In this document: positions 31,980 through 42,551 of the stretch, in pieces
How positions within the stretch are numbered: position 1 is the first letter of the stretch
Layout of the letters: every line of letters begins with the position of its first letter
Source of the DNA: an uncultured Lachnospiraceae bacterium
Lineage (GTDB): Bacteria; Bacillota; Clostridia; Lachnospirales; Lachnospiraceae
Assembly (NCBI GenBank): GCA_948470335.1
Contig: CAOKOL010000013.1
Coordinates: 1,989 to 65,988, forward strand
Direction: 5' to 3'
Length of the DNA: 64,000 nt
Translations under genes and position numbers: made by a program
The notes under the pieces: generated by a model
Database searches by the model: none
Told to the model about the DNA's origin: nothing
Seen by the model: only the letters and a program-made list of their open reading frames with translations

Positions 31980-32744
31980 ATGGACTCTTTTCTTACATTG
32001 TCCCATGTCAGTTATGCGTACCATTCTCCCCAGGGCGAGCTGCCTGCCATGACAGATCTCTGTCTTTCCATAGAAAAAGGTGAATTCGTGTCCATCGTAG
32101 GCCCGTCAGGCTGCGGCAAATCCACGCTGCTGTCCCTGATCTGTGGCCTGCTGAAGCCTGAGGAAGGAAGTATCCTGGTGGGCGGCCATCCCCCGGATGA
32201 GTCTGACGTGAAAATCGGATATATGCTCCAGAAGGATCATCTGTTTGAGTGGAGAAATATCTTTAAAAACGTATGCCTCGGGCTGGAAATCCAGAAGGCA
32301 CAGACGCCGGACAGCCTGGCCTATACCACCCAGCTGTTAAAGTCCTACGGGCTGGAGGGATTTGAGGATGTGAGGCCCTCCGAGCTGTCCGGAGGCATGC
32401 GTCAGAGGGCGGCGCTGATCCGCACCATGACGCTGCATCCGGATCTGCTGCTGCTGGATGAGCCATTTTCCGCTCTGGACTATCAGACCCGGCTGGAGGT
32501 GTGCGACGATATTGCCATGATTATCAAAGAAGCGGGAAAAACGGCCGTGCTGGTCACTCACGATCTGTCGGAGGCCATCAGTTTCGGGAACCGGGTCATC
32601 GTCTTAAGCAGCCGTCCGGCCAGGATAAAGGCGGATATCCGTCTGTCCTTTGACGAGGATCTGTCGCCGTTAAAGCGGCGCAGCGACCAGCAGTTTTATC
32701 AGTATTTTAACATGATCTGGGAGGAGTTGAAAGGCCATGAATAA
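31980..32744 (+). CDS. NitT/TauT-family ABC ATP-binding protein
   Basis: GPSGCGKSTLL, LSGGMRQR and LLLLDEPFSALD. AAGGAGG lies 7 nt before the ATG at 31980. Confidence 0.85.
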   Translation: MDSFLTLSHVSYAYHSPQGELPAMTDLCLSIEKGEFVSIVGPSGCGKSTLLSLICGLLKPEEGSILVGGHPPDESDVKIGYMLQKDHLFEWRNIFKNVCLGLEIQKAQTPDSLAYTTQLLKSYGLEGFEDVRPSELSGGMRQRAALIRTMTLHPDLLLLDEPFSALDYQTRLEVCDDIAMIIKEAGKTAVLVTHDLSEAISFGNRVIVLSSRPARIKADIRLSFDEDLSPLKRRSDQQFYQYFNMIWEELKGHE

Positions 32745-33483
32745 TATATCGGCCGCCCAGGCGGCATATCTTTCGGGTCTGAAAAGACACAGGCAGAGGG
32801 TGAGAGGCTTCCGTCTGCTTATTTTTATTCTGCTGGTGGTTCTGTGGGAGCTGGCGGCCAGAACCGGCGTTCTGGACGATTTTATTTTCAGCAGCCCTGT
32901 CAGGATGTACCATACCTTTATGGGCATGGCCGCAGACGGCTCTATTTTCCGGCATACCGGCATCACGCTGGCGGAGACGCTGGCCAGCTTTTTTTTCGTG
33001 GTGCTGTTCAGCCTTTTGCTGGCCATGGCCCTGTGGTGGAATCGGGGGCTGTATGAAATTTTAGAGCCTTATCTGGTGGTGTTAAACAGCCTGCCCAAAT
33101 CCGCCATGGCTCCGGTGCTGATCGTCTGGCTGGGAAGCAATCCGAAGACTATTATTGTGACGGGGATACTGATCGCCGTGTTCGGCTCCATTCTGACGCT
33201 GACCGTCAGCTTTCAGGAAGCCGACCCGGAGCAGATCAAGCTGATTTATACGTTAAAGGGCAGTAAGTGGGATGTGCTGAGAAAGGTCCTGCTGCCCCGG
33301 TCCGTTCCCGTGCTGATCAGCCAGATGAAGGTGAATATCGGCCTCTGCCTGGTGGGGGTGATCATCGGCGAGTTTCTGGCGGCGGACGCAGGGCTGGGGT
33401 ATCTGATTATCTATGGGAGTCAGGTGTTTAGATGGGGAGCGGGGGTGAGAGAAGTGAGTAGCCCGGTTGCAGTCGGGTTGTAA
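32737..33483 (+). pseudogene. NitT/TauT-family ABC permease, 5' part (231 native codons), interrupted at 33429/33430
   Basis: Family-like sequence up to ...GLGYLIIYGSQVF, then 18 unrelated codons and a stop. The C-terminal 35 codons are found at 42414-42521. Confidence 0.85.
33431..33466. repeat. left terminal inverted repeat (attL inner arm)
   Basis: GATGGGGAGCGGGGGTGAGAGAAGTGAGTAGCCCGG matches the reverse complement of 42373-42410. Confidence 0.7.
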
Positions 33484-33557
33484 AAAGCGGCGGTATCATG
33501 TATACTTGATATATGGTAAAACGTATGATTGCACGGGGAAAGGAAACTGTCGTATGA

Positions 33558-34045
33558 ATGAAGACAGGGCTTGATGAACGGATTGTATTTGATCAGTTGA
33601 ACGGAAATGCGCGGGCGGTGTGGAGCCTGCTGCTTGCGACCGGATATCTGAAAGTACAAAATCTCAGGCGTGTCGGTGAGCGCAGAAAGAAAGTATATAC
33701 GCTGGCGCTTACAAATATGGCAGTGGAAATATCTTTGAAGATATGGTAAAAGGGTGGTTCGGCGGCGGCACTGAAATATATTACAATGAATTTATTAACG
33801 CGCTTCTGAATGATAATATCAGAATAATGAATACGTTTATGAATAAAGTGGCGCTAAATACGTTCCGTTCATTCGACAGCGGAAATAAGCCGTCTGATCA
33901 GACAGAGCCGGAGCGTTTCTACCATGGTTTTGTTCTTGGAATGATAGTAAATCTCGCAGACATTTATAAAATCCGTTCCAACAGAGAAAGCGGCTATGGG
34001 ATGACCTGCGTAAAGATGAAAGGGGGAATGTGTCATTATGTGTGA
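33558..34045 (+). pseudogene. remnant of an AAA-ATPase-like / PD-(D/E)XK (DUF1703-type) gene: N-terminus missing, frameshifted, 3'-truncated
   Basis: Two adjacent ORFs in different frames (..WSLLLATGYLK.., then ..MVKGWFGGG...ERFYHGFVLGMIV...SNRESGYG). The frame breaks near 33735. The conserved ESGYG block is cut off where the Rpn gene begins. Confidence 0.55.
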
Positions 34046-34868
34046 AATGGGAAAGGAAATCAAATGGGAAGAAATTGGGATTTCCAATGATTTTTTGTTT
34101 GGAAGGGTCATGCAAAATCCGAAACTCTGTAAAAAGCTGTTAGAGACAATTTTAGAAATTGAGATCGAGCGGATTGAATATCCGGAGGGACAGAAGGCAA
34201 TCAATCTGGAGAAAGATGCTAAAAGTGTAAGGCTGGATATTTTCGTGCGGGATGAAAAGAAGTCAGTTTACGATATTGAGATGCAGGCCTGCACAAGTGC
34301 GGAACTTCCCAAAAGATCGAGATATTATACGGCGATGCTGGATTTGGATATGCTGGATAAAGGAGTGAGCTATAAGGTACTGAAACACAGTTTTGTGATA
34401 TTTATCTGTACATTTGACGCTTTTGACAGGGAGCTTTATTGTTATACATTTGAAAATATGTGCCAGGAAGAAGAAGGGTTGCATCTGAATGACGGGACAA
34501 CAAAAATATTCCTGAATGCGTCAGGAACAAAGGGGAATGCAAGTCCTGAATTGAAAGCATTCCTGGGATATGTAGACGGAAACAAAAGCGATGACGCATT
34601 TGTAAAAGAACTGGATGCGGAAGTAGCAAGAGTAAGGGAAAGTAAAGAATGGAGGCGGGAATATATGACATTGTTGATGAGAGATCGGGAAAATATTGAG
34701 AAAGGAATCGAACAGGGAATCGAACAGGGAATTGAACGGGGCCAAAAATTGCTCGCAGAGCTTATAAAACATTTAATTGCGGATAATCGGATGGGGGATA
34801 TTCAGGTTGCGGTGAGTAATGAAAATGTGCGTAATCAGCTATATGAAGAATATGGATTAAAAAATTGA
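34038..34868 (+). CDS. Rpn-family recombination-promoting nuclease / putative transposase (PD-(D/E)XK), copy 1
   Basis: ISNDFLFGRVMQNPKLCKKLLE...DIEMQ...YYTAMLD blocks typical of this family. C-terminal GIEQ repeats. Confidence 0.8.
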   Translation: MCEMGKEIKWEEIGISNDFLFGRVMQNPKLCKKLLETILEIEIERIEYPEGQKAINLEKDAKSVRLDIFVRDEKKSVYDIEMQACTSAELPKRSRYYTAMLDLDMLDKGVSYKVLKHSFVIFICTFDAFDRELYCYTFENMCQEEEGLHLNDGTTKIFLNASGTKGNASPELKAFLGYVDGNKSDDAFVKELDAEVARVRESKEWRREYMTLLMRDRENIEKGIEQGIEQGIERGQKLLAELIKHLIADNRMGDIQVAVSNENVRNQLYEEYGLKN

Positions 34869-34995
34869 AATGAATGCAGCGGTGTTATGAATGGAACAAG
34901 TTTCGATAAATAAGTGTGGCTTATTGAATGTTTTCAGTTGTCCATTATAAGAAATTTTGCCGGAATTGAAAAATATATGAGGGAGTAGATTACTG

Positions 34996-35910
34996 ATGAA
35001 AATAAAACATGTAGCCATCTGCGGCATGGGTGCGCTGGGGATGCTTTATGGGAAATATATTATGGAACACGGCGGTGCGGATCAAATCCATTATGTGATG
35101 GACAGGGAGCGTTTGGAAAAATACAGGCAGCGTATTTTTTCAGTGAATGGCGTACCCTGTTGTTTTCCGATGTGTGACGGCGCTGAGGATGTGCCTGCCG
35201 ATCTGGTGATTGTGGCGGTGAAATATACGGGACTTTTTGACGCTCTTAACGTGATAGAGAAATGTGTGGGTCCGGAAACCATAATTATGTCCGTGCTGAA
35301 CGGCGTTACCAGTGAGCAGATCATCGGCGAGCGGTTTGGAAAAGAGCATCTGATTTACACGGTGGCCCAGGGGACGGATGCGGTGAAATCCGGCGGAGAT
35401 CTGGCCTTTACCAATATGGGCGAACTGAGGATCGGCGTCAGAGAGGCATGTCAGATGGCAAACCTGGAGGCCGTGTGCGGCTATTTTGACCGGATCGGTT
35501 TCCCCTATGTGGTGGAACAGGATATTATGTACCGTATTTGGAGCAAATTTATGTTCAATGTGGGCGTTAATCAGGTATGCATGGTTTACGAAACGAATTA
35601 TGGGGAATGCGCAGATCCGGACAGCGAGCCGCATCGCATGATGGTTGCGGCTATGCGGGAGGCCATGGCGGTAGCCCGCTGTGAGGGGATTCCGATTGGG
35701 GAAGAAAATCTGAATGAATATGTCCGTATGCTTGACACCCTTGCCCCTGGCGCCGTCCCTTCCATGCGCCAGGATGGCCTAGCCCGCCGCCGGTCAGAAG
35801 TGGAGATCTTTGCGGGAACGGTCATAACACTGGCGAAAAAGCACCATATTCTGGTGCCGGCGAATACGTTTCTTTATAAAAGGGTTATGGAGACGGAGGC
35901 GTCTTATTGA
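34996..35910 (+). CDS. panE: 2-dehydropantoate 2-reductase (ApbA/PanE family)
   Basis: N-terminal GMGALG dinucleotide fold. WSKFMFNVGVNQ and SMRQDGLARRRSEVEIFAG blocks. Confidence 0.8.
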   Translation: MKIKHVAICGMGALGMLYGKYIMEHGGADQIHYVMDRERLEKYRQRIFSVNGVPCCFPMCDGAEDVPADLVIVAVKYTGLFDALNVIEKCVGPETIIMSVLNGVTSEQIIGERFGKEHLIYTVAQGTDAVKSGGDLAFTNMGELRIGVREACQMANLEAVCGYFDRIGFPYVVEQDIMYRIWSKFMFNVGVNQVCMVYETNYGECADPDSEPHRMMVAAMREAMAVARCEGIPIGEENLNEYVRMLDTLAPGAVPSMRQDGLARRRSEVEIFAGTVITLAKKHHILVPANTFLYKRVMETEASY

Positions 35911-36070
35911 AGTTAGGACAGAAATTATAATTTTATTTTGGGCTGTTAAAACAGGATGGTTTCTGATAAAATATTATTATAGATATAGGGAATTGCGAAA
36001 AAACAAGGGGGATTCAGAATATCTGTTTATATCCTATCAGCCTCAGCGAATGAGACAGAAAAGGGAATGA

Positions 36071-36966
36071 ATGATTATGTATGAATTAGGAAAAGAAATA
36101 AAATGGGAAGAAATTAGGATATCCAATGATTTCCTGTTTGGGAGGGTAATGCAAAATCCGAAGCTGTGTAAAAAATTGTTAGAGACGATTTTAGAAATTG
36201 AGATCGAGCGGATCGAATATCCGGAAGGACAAAAGGTTATCAATTTAGAAAAAGATGCTAAAAGTGTGAGGCTTGATATTTTTGTGAAGGATGAGAAAAA
36301 GTCCGTTTACGACATTGAGATGCAGACATGTTCCAGCACAGAACTTCCTAAAGGATCGAGATATTAGCCGCAATGCTTGATTTGGATATGCTGGATAAGG
36401 GAGTAAGCTACAAAGAATTGAAACACAGCTTTGTAATATTTATCTGTACGTTTGATGCATTTGATAAAGAGCGCTATTGTTATACGTTTGAGAATATATG
36501 CCATGAGGAAGAAGGGCTGTGTTTGGAGGATGGAACGACGAAGATATTCTTAAATGCGTCAGGGACAAAAGGGGATGTAAGTCCTGAATTGAAAGCATTC
36601 CTGGGATATGTAGCCGGAAACAAAAGCGATGATGTGTTTGTGAAGGAACTGGATGCGGAAGTAACAAAGGTAAGGGAGAGCAAAGAATGGAGGCGGGAAT
36701 ATATGACATTGTTAATGAGGGATCAGGAAAATGTTGAGAAAGGAATTGTACAGGGAATCAAACAGGGAATCGAACAGGGAGAATTACGTCAGATAATCAG
36801 TATGGTATATAAGAAAGTAAAAAAAGGAAAAACCCCGGAAGTAATCGCTGATGAATTAGAAGAAGATTTACAACTGGTGCGAAAGATTTATGATGCTATT
36901 ATATTAGAAGGTGAAGCATATGATTGTGGAAGTATATATAATATAGTTTTTGGAAAAGTTGACTGA
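36071..36966 (+). pseudogene. Rpn-family nuclease, copy 2, disrupted by a 1-nt deletion plus TAG at 36365-36367
   Basis: Colinear with copy 1 at roughly 80-90% nucleotide identity by eye over ~700 bp. The frame changes between ORFs 36071-36367 and 36373-36966. A further diverged ~70-nt fragment of the same gene family follows at 36965-37035. Confidence 0.8.
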
Positions 36967-37355
36967 TTTGGATAAGGGAGAAAACGATAAAGAATTGAAT
37001 GGCCGTATCTTTGATAGTGTTATGTATACATGGGATAATAAAATGTGATGATTGTATAAATTTATAGAGACCATTATATTATGGATGTAAGAAATATGAA
37101 TGACACTATTTATATTATGATGAAAATATCAAAAAATTCCATTACCCCACATGTTCAAGTGTAGACCAAATAAAGGAAAGAATAAATGAGAGGTCAATTT
37201 GAAAAGGGATGGGTAATTGTGCAGGGATATGACCCTTGGCAAAGGCGTAATCCGTAGGAATAGATTTTCAGATAAATTTGCTTAGTGAAAGTGATGCAGT
37301 TTCTGGTGTTTTGAAAGAACTTTTAATTGTAAATGATTATATGGAATAAAATAGG

Positions 37356-37408
37356 GGCTTTAAATCTAAATTTGTTATAGATTTAAAGCCTCTGTTTGTT
37401 TTGTTTGC
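37356..37408 (+). terminator. perfect 12-bp hairpin plus T-rich tail
   Basis: GGCTTTAAATCT (37356-37367) / AGATTTAAAGCC (37379-37390), followed by TCTGTTTGTTTTGTTTG. Confidence 0.55.
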
Positions 37409-37443
37409 TAAAAATATAATGCTAAGTATAGGGGGATAGAGCT

Positions 37444-37776
37444 ATGGTCGTAACAATAAGCATGGATACAATAAGCAGGAGAAGTAAAGCAACAGACGGA
37501 AAAGAAATTAGTCGGATCAGATGCAGAAGTGTTGATAATCGGGTCAGGGGAGAATTAAAAGACTTTGCGCATAAAATAGATGACGAAGGCTATACACTTT
37601 TCCCGGCATTGCTGGCAGGGAAAACGAAATCAGAAAATTTTGTCTTGATGCAGCTTTTAGTTTTGGATTTTGACAGCGGTGTATCCTTTGAAACGATCAG
37701 GAAAAGAACGAAAGAAAATGTGCTTGCGGAAAGTATACTGCTCGCCATGGCGAGGAACATAAAACAAGTTCCATAA
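37444..37776 (+). pseudogene. possible N-terminal remnant of a primase-polymerase-like gene
   Basis: The 110-aa ORF contains ...FPALLAGKTKSENFVLMQLLVLDFDSG..., reminiscent of the DxD motif region of plasmid/phage prim-pol proteins. It is far too short and no continuation follows in any frame. Confidence 0.3.
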
Positions 37777-38166
37777 AAGATTCAAAAAGGCAGGACTGGG
37801 ACTTATTTGTTTCCAGTGAAAAGCGCCGGATTTTAAACATCTTAAAACAGACATTCAATCCATGCGGAATGGCTTATTAAAATATGCTCTTTTTATAGAA
37901 TAACAGAATAATTTGGAGTTTTTCCTTGAAATCACATATAAAAACAGCAAAAATAAAGCTGCCGCTTCACGAATTTTCATTCGTTAAAGCGACAGCTTCT
38001 TATTTTACAATACATCCGGCAAAATGTACCGGTACCCAAGGGTATGCTTCGAGATATCATTTTTGTTGAATTTAGAAATAGATAAAGACAGGCACAATAA
38101 CGAACGAATAACCATAAAAATAAATAGAGACCCATATAACATCATCAAGCGAAAGGAGATCATTAT

Positions 38167-38322
38167 ATGAGCGAGAAGGAAAGAAAATCCATTCGGAAAA
38201 TCGCCGTGATTTTATATCAGGAAGGGAAAATCACATTTGAGGAGCAGATGAATGTTCTGGATATTTTGCGGGAAAAGTGTGATGGTACACAAGGACAGGA
38301 GTTCGCGTCAGCCGCCATGTAA
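38167..38322 (+). CDS. 51-aa ORF immediately upstream of the recombinase, function unknown
   Basis: Not in the ORF track (below its length cutoff). AAGGAG lies 8 nt before the ATG. Sequence MSEKERKSIRKIAVILYQEGKITFEEQMNVLDILREKCDGTQGQEFASAAM. Same strand as the recombinase and 83 nt upstream of it. Confidence 0.4.
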   Translation: MSEKERKSIRKIAVILYQEGKITFEEQMNVLDILREKCDGTQGQEFASAAM

Positions 38323-38405
38323 AATACGATAGGTTTGGCAGAAAAGCCTTAGCTAAAAGAGATGGATTACCAAAGGAATCCATAAACGGAAGGAGGTGAA
38401 AATCT

Positions 38406-40286
38406 ATGGATAAACTGCGCGCAGTGATCTATAATCGCTGCAGTACGGAAGAAGAAAGCCAGAAGGACGCGCTGAAAAAGCAGGTACAGGAATCGAAAGC
38501 ATGTGTAGCGGAACAGGGATGGCAATTGACAGACTGTTATGTGGAGGCGAAAAGCGGCACCACATCCAAAGGAAGAACGGAATATAACCGGTTATACCGG
38601 GATCTGGAGCGGGACAAATTCGACATTATCGTGATTAAAAGCCAGGACCGGCTGATGCGGAATACCAAGGACTGGTATCTGTTTTTGGACCGGATGCAGA
38701 AAAATCAGAAGCGGCTGTATATGTATCTGGAACGGAAGTTTTATACACCGGACGACGCTTTGATCACAGGCATTAAAGCGATACTGGCAGAGGAATACAG
38801 CAGAGAACTGAGCAAAAAGATTAATCATGCCCATCAGAACCGTCAGAAAGAAGGAAAGAGCTTTGTCTTTACCCGGAATACATACGGACTGAAAAAACTG
38901 CCCGATAAAAGGATTGTGATTGATGAGGAACAGGCCGATATGATCAGGATGATCTTCCGGCTGTCAGCGAACGGATATGGAACTCACAGCAGCGCAGAGA
39001 TCCTTTATCAGAAAGGATACCGGAACCATGAAGGAAACGCAATCAGTCCCGGAATGATCAGGAAAATCATCAGAAATCCAATCTATAAAGGAACGGTGGT
39101 TCAGAACCGCCAGCATTATGACTTTGAGAGTAAACGGATATTCCGGAATCCGCCGTCAGAATGGATCATCCATGAACATGCCGTACCGGCCATTGTAGAC
39201 AACGAACTGTTTGAACAGGCAAACAAAGGCCTGGACGACCGCAGAGCAGGCAGAAAAAAGGAAGAAGGGATGCTACAGCCTTGGTTTCCGGCGGGCTTTC
39301 CGGCGAAAAATGATCTGGCAGGAAAAGTATTCTGCGGGCTGTGCAAAGAACCTTTTTACAGAGTGACCCGGCCTCGGAAATACGGTAAAGTGGTCGAGTG
39401 GAAGTGCAGAAGATATTTATATTATGGAAGAAATGATGAAAGCCTGCGGAAAGATCATATCAGGAAAGCGGAAAGAGCGGAAATAACTGGTTGCGATAAT
39501 GTACATATCAATGAAGAAAAACTGTACAAAGTTCTTGACCAGATCTGCCGAAAAAAGTACGACGATTTTCAGAAAGACAGATCAGATCTGCTGAATAAGA
39601 CGCTGCTGATTTTGCGGAAGGCGCTGGGAGAAGATCATGGGGCCATGAAAAGGGAGGAATTGGAATCAGTTGTGAAAAAAGAAATGCGCAAGAAAAATAT
39701 TCTGATGGAAAAATTACTGGACGGCGTGATTTCAGATACTGATTTTAAACTGAAAAATCGGGAGATCCGGGAGAAGCTGGATGATTTGGAAAAGCAGCGC
39801 AGGATGATGGAGGAGGATATGCTGCAGAATAACCGGCTGGAACAGCGGATGGATGATATCCGTAATCAACTGGAAAACGGTATGATCGAAAGAGCAGAGC
39901 TGTCAGATATGCTTGGGGATATCAAACGGGTGGATGTATTTCCGAAATATCTGGAAATAACTTTTGATTCCTTTTCCCTTATGGGATTGGACAGGAAGAC
40001 AGAGGATATGGATATCAGAGGTGAAACAGATAAACTGACCGTGATACGGATTCCTCAGACCTGCAGCAGCTCAGTTCGTCCGGATATTGAAGCGGAAAAG
40101 GAGCGGATCATAGAAATGATGCGCTGTCGGCCCCAAATTACCGCAAAGAAAATAGCGGATGAGATGCATGTGAGTATCTCGCGGGTCAACCGCAGGATCA
40201 TCGAATTGAAAAAGGAAGGACGGATCAGGTACAGCGCGTCCAATGGGAGAGGGCGGTGGAGCATGCCTGAGTGCGGGGAAACGTGA
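38406..40286 (+). CDS. large serine recombinase (626 aa)
   Basis: Resolvase-type catalytic N-terminus (AVIYNRCSTEEESQ, putative nucleophile Ser13). Recombinase domain (IRKIIRNPIYKGT). Zinc-ribbon cysteines (CGLCKEPFYRV...WKCRRY). Long coiled coil. Extra C-terminal HTH-like segment. GGAGGTG lies before the ATG. Confidence 0.9.
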   Translation: MDKLRAVIYNRCSTEEESQKDALKKQVQESKACVAEQGWQLTDCYVEAKSGTTSKGRTEYNRLYRDLERDKFDIIVIKSQDRLMRNTKDWYLFLDRMQKNQKRLYMYLERKFYTPDDALITGIKAILAEEYSRELSKKINHAHQNRQKEGKSFVFTRNTYGLKKLPDKRIVIDEEQADMIRMIFRLSANGYGTHSSAEILYQKGYRNHEGNAISPGMIRKIIRNPIYKGTVVQNRQHYDFESKRIFRNPPSEWIIHEHAVPAIVDNELFEQANKGLDDRRAGRKKEEGMLQPWFPAGFPAKNDLAGKVFCGLCKEPFYRVTRPRKYGKVVEWKCRRYLYYGRNDESLRKDHIRKAERAEITGCDNVHINEEKLYKVLDQICRKKYDDFQKDRSDLLNKTLLILRKALGEDHGAMKREELESVVKKEMRKKNILMEKLLDGVISDTDFKLKNREIREKLDDLEKQRRMMEEDMLQNNRLEQRMDDIRNQLENGMIERAELSDMLGDIKRVDVFPKYLEITFDSFSLMGLDRKTEDMDIRGETDKLTVIRIPQTCSSSVRPDIEAEKERIIEMMRCRPQITAKKIADEMHVSISRVNRRIIELKKEGRIRYSASNGRGRWSMPECGET

Positions 40287-40450
40287 TAATTATGGGGTTC
40301 CTGTCGCCTTGAATATGGCATTCTCTTTGTTGCAGAATTTATCACAATATCATGCGTCTTTGCAAAGCCAGCCGAGCCAGTCAATAGCAAGATGAACGGA
40401 TCGGCGAGCCGCTATTGACAGTCCCGTCTGTCCTTGACGGTGAGTAATCA

Positions 40451-40482
40451 AGAGGGCGACAGCATTTTTGCTGTCGCCCTCT
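40451..40482 (+). terminator. perfect 13-bp hairpin downstream of the recombinase gene (weak U-tract)
   Basis: AGAGGGCGACAGC-ATTTTT-GCTGTCGCCCTCT followed by TTGTG. Confidence 0.45.
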
Positions 40483-40817
40483 TTGTGCGCCTGGCGGCGT
40501 ATGTCACTAATGAATGAAAATTCCTAATCCGCCCTGCATATAAAAATTGCGGAGACAGATGTAAAACTGCCGGTTTTTAAAACAATTAAACCATTTAAAT
40601 CGTGGATTGCATATTGCTTTGAAAATAGGATTTTATTATAATGTATGAGGAGGGTAATTGCCTGTTTTTATATTTTGTGTAGAGAGGACACAGCAATGGA
40701 CAGACTTGGACAACTCCATGCATCAGATATATCCGGAAGCAGACACAGAAAATATCAGGAAGCCGTCTGTGATTTTGACGGAGGATTCCAATGCGGGATA
40801 TACAGAAGGGAGATTTG

Positions 40818-41735
40818 ATGGCAGACAAAGAACAATTAATCGAGATATTCGAAGATACAAAACGCTGGTATGAGGAGGAACCAAAACTGGCGGAAGCAGT
40901 GAAACAGACTGTTGCACAGACAAAGGTATATATGGAGGAGGATGGGCCTGCATTATGGGAAACGCTGAAAACCATGAGACAGAACACAACAGGCGCAGGA
41001 GCGGCTGATGCGGCAAACGCAGCGAATACACCAGGCGCAAAAGTACACCATCTTACTGTCACAGTCTCCAAAAACAAAACTTTCGAGGCAGCCCTGAAAT
41101 TAAGACAGCAGTTTCCGGATTCCAAAATCGCTGTCCACAATTTTGCCTCTGCCACCAATCCCGGCGGCGGCGTGACACGGGGAAGCAGGGCGCAGGAGGA
41201 ATGCCTGTGCAGGTGTTCCACCCTTTATCCGGCGTTGAATACGAAAGCCCTGTGGGGGCAGTTTTATCAGTTTCACAGAAACCGCCATGATGTCCGTTAT
41301 ACGGATGCCTGTATTTATACGCCCGGCGTACGGATCATAAAAACCGATACCGAGGCACCGGAACGAATGCCGGAAACGCAGTGGTGCAGCGTGGACGTTC
41401 TGACCTGTGCCGCCCCGAATCTGCGGGCCATTCCCAACAATGCAATGAATCCGGGAACCGGAGCGCCGGTGAAGGTATCTGACAGAGAACTTCTGAAACT
41501 TCATAAAAAGCGGGCCAGACATATGCTTGCCGCGGCGGCAGTAAACGGCGCCGAGATTCTGGTACTGGGAGCCTTTGGCTGCGGCGCGTTCCGGAATAAG
41601 CCGGAAGTGGTGGCCCGGGCATATCTGGAAACGATTGACGAGTTCGCATCATATTTTGAGCGGATTGAATTTGCCGTATACTGTTCTCCGAGGGACAGCA
41701 AAAATTATGAGGTATTTCGGCGGACGCTGGGGTGA
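40818..41735 (+). CDS. TIGR02452 / microbial PARG-like macrodomain-fold protein
   Basis: NFASATNPGGGVTRGSRAQEECLCRCSTLY and VLGAFGCGAFRN blocks as recalled for this family. GAAGGGAG lies before the ATG at 40818. Confidence 0.7.
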   Translation: MADKEQLIEIFEDTKRWYEEEPKLAEAVKQTVAQTKVYMEEDGPALWETLKTMRQNTTGAGAADAANAANTPGAKVHHLTVTVSKNKTFEAALKLRQQFPDSKIAVHNFASATNPGGGVTRGSRAQEECLCRCSTLYPALNTKALWGQFYQFHRNRHDVRYTDACIYTPGVRIIKTDTEAPERMPETQWCSVDVLTCAAPNLRAIPNNAMNPGTGAPVKVSDRELLKLHKKRARHMLAAAAVNGAEILVLGAFGCGAFRNKPEVVARAYLETIDEFASYFERIEFAVYCSPRDSKNYEVFRRTLG

Positions 41736-41809
41736 ATCCGTCATATTTGCCCAAAGACAATGACATGTTGGTCTGCTGTAAATATGTAGTGAGCAAAAGG
41801 AAAATTACA

Positions 41810-42415
41810 ATGATAAATATCCGAAATGAAACAGAAAACGATTACCGGATCGTAGAAGAAATCACAAGAAAAGCATTTTACAATATTTATGTTCCGGGAT
41901 GTACCGAGCATTATCTGGTACATGTGATGCGCCGACATGAAGATTTTATACCGGAACTGGATTTCGTGATCGAGCACGACGGGCAGGTGATCGGAAATAT
42001 TATGTATACACGTGCCAGACTGGTTGACGAAGCCGGAACCCAAAAAGAGATTGTCACCTTTGGGCCGGTCAGCGTTCTGCCGGAATATCAGAGAATGGGG
42101 TATGGGAAAATGCTGATGGAGCATTCCTTTGAACAGGCCGTAGTGCTTGGCTATGACGTGATCGTAATATTCGGAAGTCCCGCGAATTATGTGAGCCGCG
42201 GATTTAAAAGCTGCAAAAAGTATCATATTTGTACGGAAGAAGGAAAATATCCGGCGGCGATGATGGTGAAGGAACTGCGGCCCGGTGTATTGGACGGGAG
42301 AAAATGGGTTTATTCTGACAGCCCGGTTATGGCCGTCAATGAAGAAGAAGATTCTTACTTATGCCGGGAATGCCCGCGTATTCATTTCTCTCACTCCCGT
42401 GCCCATTCTCTTTAA
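41810..42415 (+). CDS. GNAT-family N-acetyltransferase (COG3153-like)
   Basis: MINIRNETENDY..., FGPVSVLPEYQRMGYGKMLMEH acetyl-CoA binding block. The last ~20 codons run through the right terminal repeat, and the stop TAA (42413-42415) overlaps the junction. Confidence 0.75.
   Translation: MINIRNETENDYRIVEEITRKAFYNIYVPGCTEHYLVHVMRRHEDFIPELDFVIEHDGQVIGNIMYTRARLVDEAGTQKEIVTFGPVSVLPEYQRMGYGKMLMEHSFEQAVVLGYDVIVIFGSPANYVSRGFKSCKKYHICTEEGKYPAAMMVKELRPGVLDGRKWVYSDSPVMAVNEEEDSYLCRECPRIHFSHSRAHSL
42373..42410. repeat. right terminal inverted repeat (attR inner arm)
   Basis: The reverse complement GAGAATGGGCACGGGAGTGAGAGAAATGAATACGCGGG matches 33431-33466. Confidence 0.7.
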
Positions 42416-42521
42416 AATGGACTGGGTGATGATGAGTATCGTCATCCTGTGCATTCTGGCCACGGCCCTTTATTCCTGTATTAATGTGCTGGAGAAGCAG
42501 TATCATAAAAAATGGCAGTGA
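42411..42521 (+). pseudogene. 3' part of the interrupted ABC permease (last 35 codons plus the shared Phe codon)
   Basis: F-KMDWVMMSIVILCILATALYSCINVLEKQYHKKWQ*, a hydrophobic terminal TM helix typical of the family's C-terminus. Same strand and frame-compatible with 32737-33429. Confidence 0.8.
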
Positions 42522-42551
42522 TGCTGTAATGCCGGATTAAGAAGGAAACAG

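Follow-up and report, generated by a model that had tools for sequence, protein, structure and literature searches.

The 64,000-nt stretch of DNA analysed here (the window) contains a NitT/TauT-type ABC permease gene, which is split by a segment of about 9 kb. The N-terminal part of the permease (32737..33426, + strand) ends in ...GYLIIYGSQV, and the C-terminal part, which comprises the last transmembrane helix, follows on the same strand at 42413..42521; the identity of the protein is given by matches to NCBIfam permease families. Joining 32737-33430 to 42415-42521 yields an intact permease of 266 aa, i.e., the flanks rejoin without gain or loss of bases, as in a conservative insertion, and the reconstructed site in the permease gene reads ...CAGGTG-TT-TAAAATGG.... 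In G002, a genome of the same genus, the gene is uninterrupted and its junction (...CCAGGTGTTTAAAATGGACTGG...) is identical to this reconstruction, while the genomes G003, G021, G024, G019, and G006 also align straight over the junction. The G+C content of the left flank is approximately 0.53-0.56, compared to 0.32-0.51 within the segment. The insertion exchanges the last transmembrane helix of the permease for 18 unrelated residues, and the interrupted transporter is probably inactivated. If its ends were joined at the TT dinucleotide found at either junction, the segment would form a circle of 8,984 bp.

The interior of the segment is a mosaic of genes on the + strand. Next to the left junction lies the remnant of a PDDEXK_9/DUF1703-type gene in two short ORFs (33558..34045; weak match to PF08011), to which tblastx assigns full-length genes in the elements of other species (e.g., in locus L043; the relatives are described below). 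It is followed by an Rpn-family PD-(D/E)XK nuclease of the kind annotated as “putative transposase” (34038..34868; PF12784; TIGR01784, 1.4e-33), a ketopantoate-reductase-like (PanE/ApbA) gene (34996..35910; PF02558, PF08546), and a second Rpn copy, a pseudogene that is split in two ORFs (36071..36966) and forms the direct repeats D1 and D2, which are 84-85% identical to 34024-34631. Some of the related elements carry the Rpn nuclease as well (e.g., L037). At the right end, a microbial PARG-like/TIGR02452 protein (40791..41735; PF10021, 8.5e-38; TIGR02452, 1.6e-48) and a GNAT acetyltransferase (41732..42415; PF00583) are encoded. The last codons of the latter lie within the right terminal arm of the element: the ORF runs through the arm and is terminated by a TAA that directly follows the crossover and belongs to the host. 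Once the element is circular, this codon would instead be a TAG contributed by the opposite arm, and the GNAT protein would therefore end at the same place whether the element is integrated or circular. Neither a DDE transposase nor a tyrosine recombinase, a relaxase/Mob protein or a phage gene was detected by Pfam among the ten element ORFs scanned, and the only genes labelled “transposase” are the Rpn/PDDEXK_2 nucleases; for these ten ORFs, the statement in the preliminary description that the element lacks a DDE transposase holds.

Between the second Rpn copy and the PARG-like gene lies a gene for a large serine recombinase (LSR) of 626 aa (38406..40286, + strand). Pfam identifies a resolvase domain (PF00239, 6e-25), a recombinase domain (PF07508, 8e-22), a zinc ribbon (PF13408, Zn_ribbon_recom, 3e-6), and a C-terminal winged-helix tail (HTH_24). 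The motif YNRCST of the window LSR aligns with YTRVST of the TP901-1 integrase, the serine of which is the nucleophile; its counterpart in the window LSR is the catalytic serine. The LSR is present in a single copy, and the other two serine recombinases of the genome are 26-29% identical to it. Close relatives were found in none of the viral, phage or plasmid collections: the viral contigs searched yielded, as closest match, a protein of 40% identity that aligns with residues 3-529 and not with the C-terminal tail, and the best match in phage records is 46% identical over half of the protein. In one related locus (L082, 10019-12166), the recombinase is extended to 715 aa by a low-complexity, repeat-like insertion of about 90 residues (QAGN.., QAGK..), which follows the first pair of cysteines in the region of the zinc ribbon. 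Downstream of the window LSR, 165 bp past its stop codon, a G+C-rich hairpin of 13 bp followed by TTTGTG can be read from the sequence (40451..40482, + strand); a simple terminator scan did not list it, and it is likely a terminator that parts the LSR unit from the PARG/GNAT cargo.

Just upstream of the LSR, a small ORF of 51 aa is encoded (38167..38322, + strand), which is pointed out by its conservation. A homologous ORF of 37-55 aa precedes the recombinase in most loci examined, including those with recombinases of 42-47% identity. The aligned products share the consensus ..IIE.I.RILV.E..IT.EEQLR.LELL.., in which L16, I22, and E26 are invariant, and they probably fold into two helices; the family has no significant match in Pfam. 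Its position and conservation make the ORF a candidate for a directionality or other regulatory partner of the LSR.

The two ends of the segment resemble each other as inverted repeats. As quoted in the preliminary description, the sequence just inside the left junction (33431-33466) is GATGGGGAGCGGGGGTGAGAGAAGTGAGTAGCCCGG, the reverse complement of the right end (42373-42410) is GAGAATGGGCACGGGAGTGAGAGAAATGAATACGCGGG, the 9-mer GTGAGAGAA is common to both, and TTTA occurs at 33427-33430 and at 42411-42414; all of these are found at the positions given there. The alignment by eye, with about 28 matches and two gaps, had overestimated a similarity that is nevertheless real: when the left end and the reverse-complemented right end are locally aligned with formal scoring, 25 matches are obtained in 29 columns with one gap, for a score of 31. 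This score was equalled neither in 20,000 shuffles (maximum 28) nor by any of 20,000 random pairs of real sequences from the window (maximum 26). Within 33300-42550, a repeat search returned the pair of arms as the longest inverted repeat. The gapped register is valid, but an ungapped register centred on TT fits the ends better: when the ends are joined, 24 of 32 positions are complementary around a dyad, compared to 16 of 32 in the next best register. Random pairs of window positions were used as pseudo-junctions, with the centre allowed a displacement of up to 8 bp in both directions, and only 1 in 200,000 reached at least 24 of 32. The similarity of the ends thus exceeds shuffled, real-pair, and pseudo-junction controls, i.e., the comparison by which it had been proposed to be refuted.

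In the ungapped register, the ends can be described as the two arms of a recombination site (attP): the P' arm at the left end, read inward (33429..33460, + strand; TAGATGGGGAGCGGGGGTGAGAGAAGTGAGTA), and the P arm at the right end, read inward (42379..42410, - strand; GAGAATGGGCACGGGAGTGAGAGAAATGAATA). The joined ends constitute an imperfect palindrome around a 2-bp crossover, as is characteristic of LSR elements, in which it measures about 50 bp. A position matrix was built exclusively from the arms of related elements, leaving out those of the window. With this matrix, the P' arm at 33429 scores 29.8 bits and is the top match on the + strand of the 64 kb (runner-up 13.9), and the P arm at 42410, which resembles the P arms of the relatives (GAGATGGGCGGCG...), scores 25.6 bits and is the top match on the minus strand (runner-up 7.0). 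According to the information content of the matrix, the arms are strongly conserved over the first ~25 bp from the centre and less so up to ~32 bp. The LI-integrase model predicts that the distal motif is displaced in attB relative to attP; when different offsets were scored, the best scores were obtained at offsets 0 and 6-7, and none was positive.

The dyad of the joined ends is centred between the first and the second T of TTTA rather than in the middle of TTTA, which places a TT crossover dinucleotide at 33427..33428 in the left junction (attL), where it forms the first two bases of a Phe codon, and at 42411..42412 in the right junction (attR). TT is invariant at the junctions of the related elements and is present at both junctions in the 8 relatives with two recognisable ends, and the empty site of G002 contains a single TT. 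In L037 and L043, the bases on either side of TT differ between the two junctions, which implies that TT is the whole shared core. On the sequence evidence, the crossover core is therefore TT and not TTTA, as had been assumed initially; the proposed attP with a shared core remains, reduced to two bases. The TA that follows is a chance identity between the attB and the attP of the window, and because these two bases happen to match at both junctions, the longer TTTA was perceived. Inverted repeats flanked by a 4-bp direct repeat are also what a DDE-type (or other cut-and-paste) transposon would leave behind after a 4-bp target-site duplication of TTTA, and comparing the occupied with the empty site alone cannot distinguish such a duplication from a shared core.

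This distinction can be drawn from related elements. Eighty related loci were obtained from different species, nearly all of them Lachnospiraceae, with recombinases that are 42-69% identical to the window LSR. The junction with the N-terminal part of the permease (attL-type) was recognised in 18 relatives, both junctions in 8, and one junction in three more; in the 21 other species with a recognisable junction, the recombinases are 52-69% identical. Every one of these junctions lies at the same codon boundary of the permease, ...IIYGSQV|F... (GSQV|F). TT marks each junction, the motif ...GCGG-AAATGATA(G/A)AA... is common to the arms, and in 8/8 of the two-ended relatives the permease ORF becomes intact again when the flanks are rejoined at TT. 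The block of identity around TT comprises 2 to 4 bp, differing between elements, which is incompatible with a duplication of fixed length at an arbitrary target. A putative left arm in L033 was rejected, as it has a CC core and a flank other than the permease. The arms and the permease target are found in a single clade of LSRs (at least ~52% identity) and in none of the loci with 42-47% identity; since the arms occur only together with recombinases of this clade, specificity follows the enzyme. Homologous recombinases in 21 other species, with both ends defined in 8, thus have homologous ends at the same junction position, whereas the preliminary description had named different ends and positions as an outcome that would speak against the proposed site.

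The two-ended relatives range from 3.8 to 11.1 kb, and their cargo is unrelated between elements: judging from the translated ORFs, there are transporters (ABC and MATE), PTS genes, Rpn nucleases, AAA/PD-(D/E)XK proteins, and a hemerythrin/receiver protein. In contrast to this variable cargo, the LSR and the arms are constant in all delimited elements, and nearly all loci have the small ORF ahead of the LSR. The smallest elements, of 3.8 kb (L051, 8081-11892; L045, 8103-11895), have a single cargo gene (446 aa, which looks like a fusion of hemerythrin and receiver domains) besides the LSR and the small ORF. The LSR of L051 ends with its stop codon directly at the distal end of the P' arm. Genes for phage structure, replication or lysis were not detected by Pfam in the window element, and none are apparent in the ORF lists of the relatives. 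Together with the lack of close LSR relatives in the viral, phage, and plasmid collections, these contents characterise the elements as small, non-phage, non-conjugative integrative islands. The island in the window is unremarkable within this large family of Lachnospiraceae elements, which always land at the one permease codon.

The insertion itself also exists outside of the source assembly, since a contig of an independent metagenome (L111, Ga0137306_116076, 3397 bp) contains the left junction and element interior at 98.5% identity. A scan of metagenomes with the P' arm returned only this 98.5%-identical element and neither a circular nor an empty form; a scan of viral contigs with the same arm gave no match. 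Among 401 genomes of the family, a variant of the arm with up to 3 mismatches was found in G000 and G001 only.

Taken together, these observations point to an integrative island of about 9 kb that was placed in the permease gene by its own LSR, with the inverted-repeat ends representing the P' and P half-sites of attP; judged from sequence comparison, the probability of this reading is roughly 90%. The insertion is precise, the empty site is found in a related genome, the joined ends form a dyad around TT, arms, core, and codon are conserved within one LSR clade, and the LSR is intact including its catalytic serine. The architecture of an attP recognised by a serine recombinase, which had been suggested from the ends alone, is borne out by the dyad around TT, the homologous arms of the relatives, the empty site, and the intact LSR, and an attP of an LSR is supported over the ends of a DDE transposon.

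The course of integration can be proposed by analogy with characterised serine integrases, from which the chemistry of cutting and rejoining, the stoichiometry of dimers and tetramer, any present activity of the element, and the role of the small ORF would be transferred. In the circular form, the P and P' half-sites would flank the central TT, and the junction would read ...CCCATTCTC-TT-TAGATGGGG.... One LSR dimer would bind attP and a second dimer attB in the permease gene; four serines would then cut both sites at TT, leaving 2-nt overhangs. After a turn of one half of the synapse by 180 degrees, the ends would be rejoined, giving rise to attL (33427...) and attR (...42412). As TT is not palindromic, it would fix the orientation of the insertion, and the non-palindromic core is described to set orientation in serine integrases (Ghosh et al., 2003, as cited in PMC10083194). 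Excision would presumably need a directionality factor, and the 51-aa ORF that precedes the LSR is the first candidate for this role.

Whether the island might still move is a separate matter. It could be a fossil, which was inserted by a serine integrase but is now immobile, with the arms as relics. The mosaic interior with a gene remnant and a split Rpn copy is compatible with this, and so is the arrangement of attP and LSR: in 21/21 relatives, the LSR gene is antisense to the permease, and in the smallest elements (L051, L045, L043, L052, L056) it ends ~50-100 bp from the P' arm. Unlike in these 21 relatives, the window LSR is in the permease sense, i.e., attP is inverted relative to the LSR gene. 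The distance from the gene to the P' arm is 5 kb; the P arm is 2.1 kb away, beyond the PARG-like and GNAT genes. A degenerate old attP just downstream of the window LSR was considered and discarded, as the matrix has no match there and only the terminator-like hairpin is found; no remnant site or repeat that could explain the inverted attP was detected in the window. The single metagenome contig with the same insertion at 98.5% identity, found without an empty or circular form beside it, would also fit an immobile element. However, the LSR reads as a full-length protein that retains the catalytic motif and lacks none of the domains, the small ORF in front of it is unbroken, and both arms score close to those of the relatives. 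Moreover, an enzyme that acts in trans should be indifferent to how its site is oriented with respect to its gene. A loss of mobility is therefore doubtful, although it deserves some weight.

A broader proposal concerns the permease codon itself. In G001, which belongs to the same genus, the permease alignment stops at exactly the junction nucleotide of the window and continues with GATGGGGAGCGGTGGTGATAGAAGTGAGTAACC. Counted from the crossover, the arm is identical to the left (P') arm of the window at 29 of 32 positions, and the sequences are unrelated beyond ~35 bp from the centre, which limits the functional arm to approximately 35 bp or less. As the arm is nearly identical and the rest of the element is different, it is the arm, not the cargo, that goes with the site. 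The G001 element (L029, G001:C95:1-2900, from 2793 down to the contig end) encodes HicA/HicB-like genes and RtcB, and the contig ends inside the element. In this 92%-complete assembly, an LSR of the clade, a P arm, and the C-terminal part of the permease were not found, and the element may be non-autonomous or simply unassembled; an association of arm and clade LSR is thus not seen in this genome. The permease codon could be imagined as a shared landing pad for exchangeable cassettes, somewhat similar to an integron or SCC site, where some cassettes (e.g., the G001 element) lack a recombinase and are moved in trans by an LSR of the clade. In such a scheme, the protein of ~40 aa would be an undescribed directionality factor, and the winged-helix tail of the LSR might function in site choice or self-regulation. 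This scheme is speculative and on the whole improbable.

Many Lachnospiraceae form spores, and with hosts from this family, the island might be a gene-intervening element of the skin/SPbeta/gin type, which the LSR and the small ORF would excise at a set time, e.g., in the mother cell during sporulation. Being precise, the insertion could be reversed in frame, and the pairing of an LSR with a conserved small partner ORF outside of a phage is reminiscent of GirC and GirX of gin (PMC5595907). This idea is nevertheless very unlikely, because the target is an ABC permease without a known link to sporulation, the gene is uninterrupted in many related genomes, and the cargo is as variable as expected of a horizontally moving island. 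Least credible is the DDE-type transposon with a TTTA duplication introduced above, which fails since a scan of ten ORFs gave no DDE domain, the repeated bases of the 21 related elements are always TT and always at one codon of one gene, the identity block is of variable length, and the Rpn genes, the only “transposases” of the window element, are missing from relatives of 3.8-4.7 kb.

As an island integrated by its own LSR, the window element contributes a computationally well supported set of attP, attB, and recombinase with a defined TT core. Its family counts at least 22 members (3.8-11.1 kb), which are spread over many gut Lachnospiraceae and all occupy one conserved codon, and the set could serve for site-specific integration in gut commensals that are hard to engineer. 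The permease codon emerges as a recurrent entry point for cargo with functions in efflux, PTS and ABC transport, signalling, toxin-antitoxin systems, and PARG/GNAT activities, where each insertion costs the permease its last transmembrane helix. The understanding of serine integrases remains unchanged by the island: both dinucleotide cores and LSR clusters with one target gene each are well documented (PMC10083194).

The serine-integrase elements described by Durrant et al. (2022, PMC10083194) likewise combine an attP in the form of an imperfect palindrome with a 2-bp non-palindromic core and precise insertion by attB x attP recombination, and related enzymes target one gene cluster. The window LSR shares the build of a resolvase, recombinase-domain, and zinc-ribbon protein with the integrases of phiC31, Bxb1, A118/LI, and TP901-1. 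In contrast to the phiC31, Bxb1, A118, and TP901-1 systems, the window element is not phage-borne, the LSR has an additional C-terminal winged-helix domain, and attP is inverted relative to the LSR gene, at a distance of 2.1 kb. Small non-phage LSR elements with cargo and a 2-bp core at both ends are also represented in Firmicutes by Tn4451/Tn4453 (TnpX) and Tn5397 (TndX), which have a GA core, a looser choice of target, and genes for mobilisation (TnpZ/oriT) or conjugation. The window element differs from these clostridial transposons by its TT core and by a target that is restricted to one codon of one gene, and no relaxase/Mob domain, and hence no mobilisation protein, was found among the ten window ORFs scanned. 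The gin element of Bacillus cereus ATCC 10987, which sits within gerE, a sporulation gene, and is removed when the cells sporulate (PMC5595907), is similar in being non-phage, in interrupting a coding region, and in relying on a serine recombinase together with a small accessory protein (GirC and GirX). In the window, by comparison, the target is a transporter permease, and the small ORF is a candidate partner of the recombinase.
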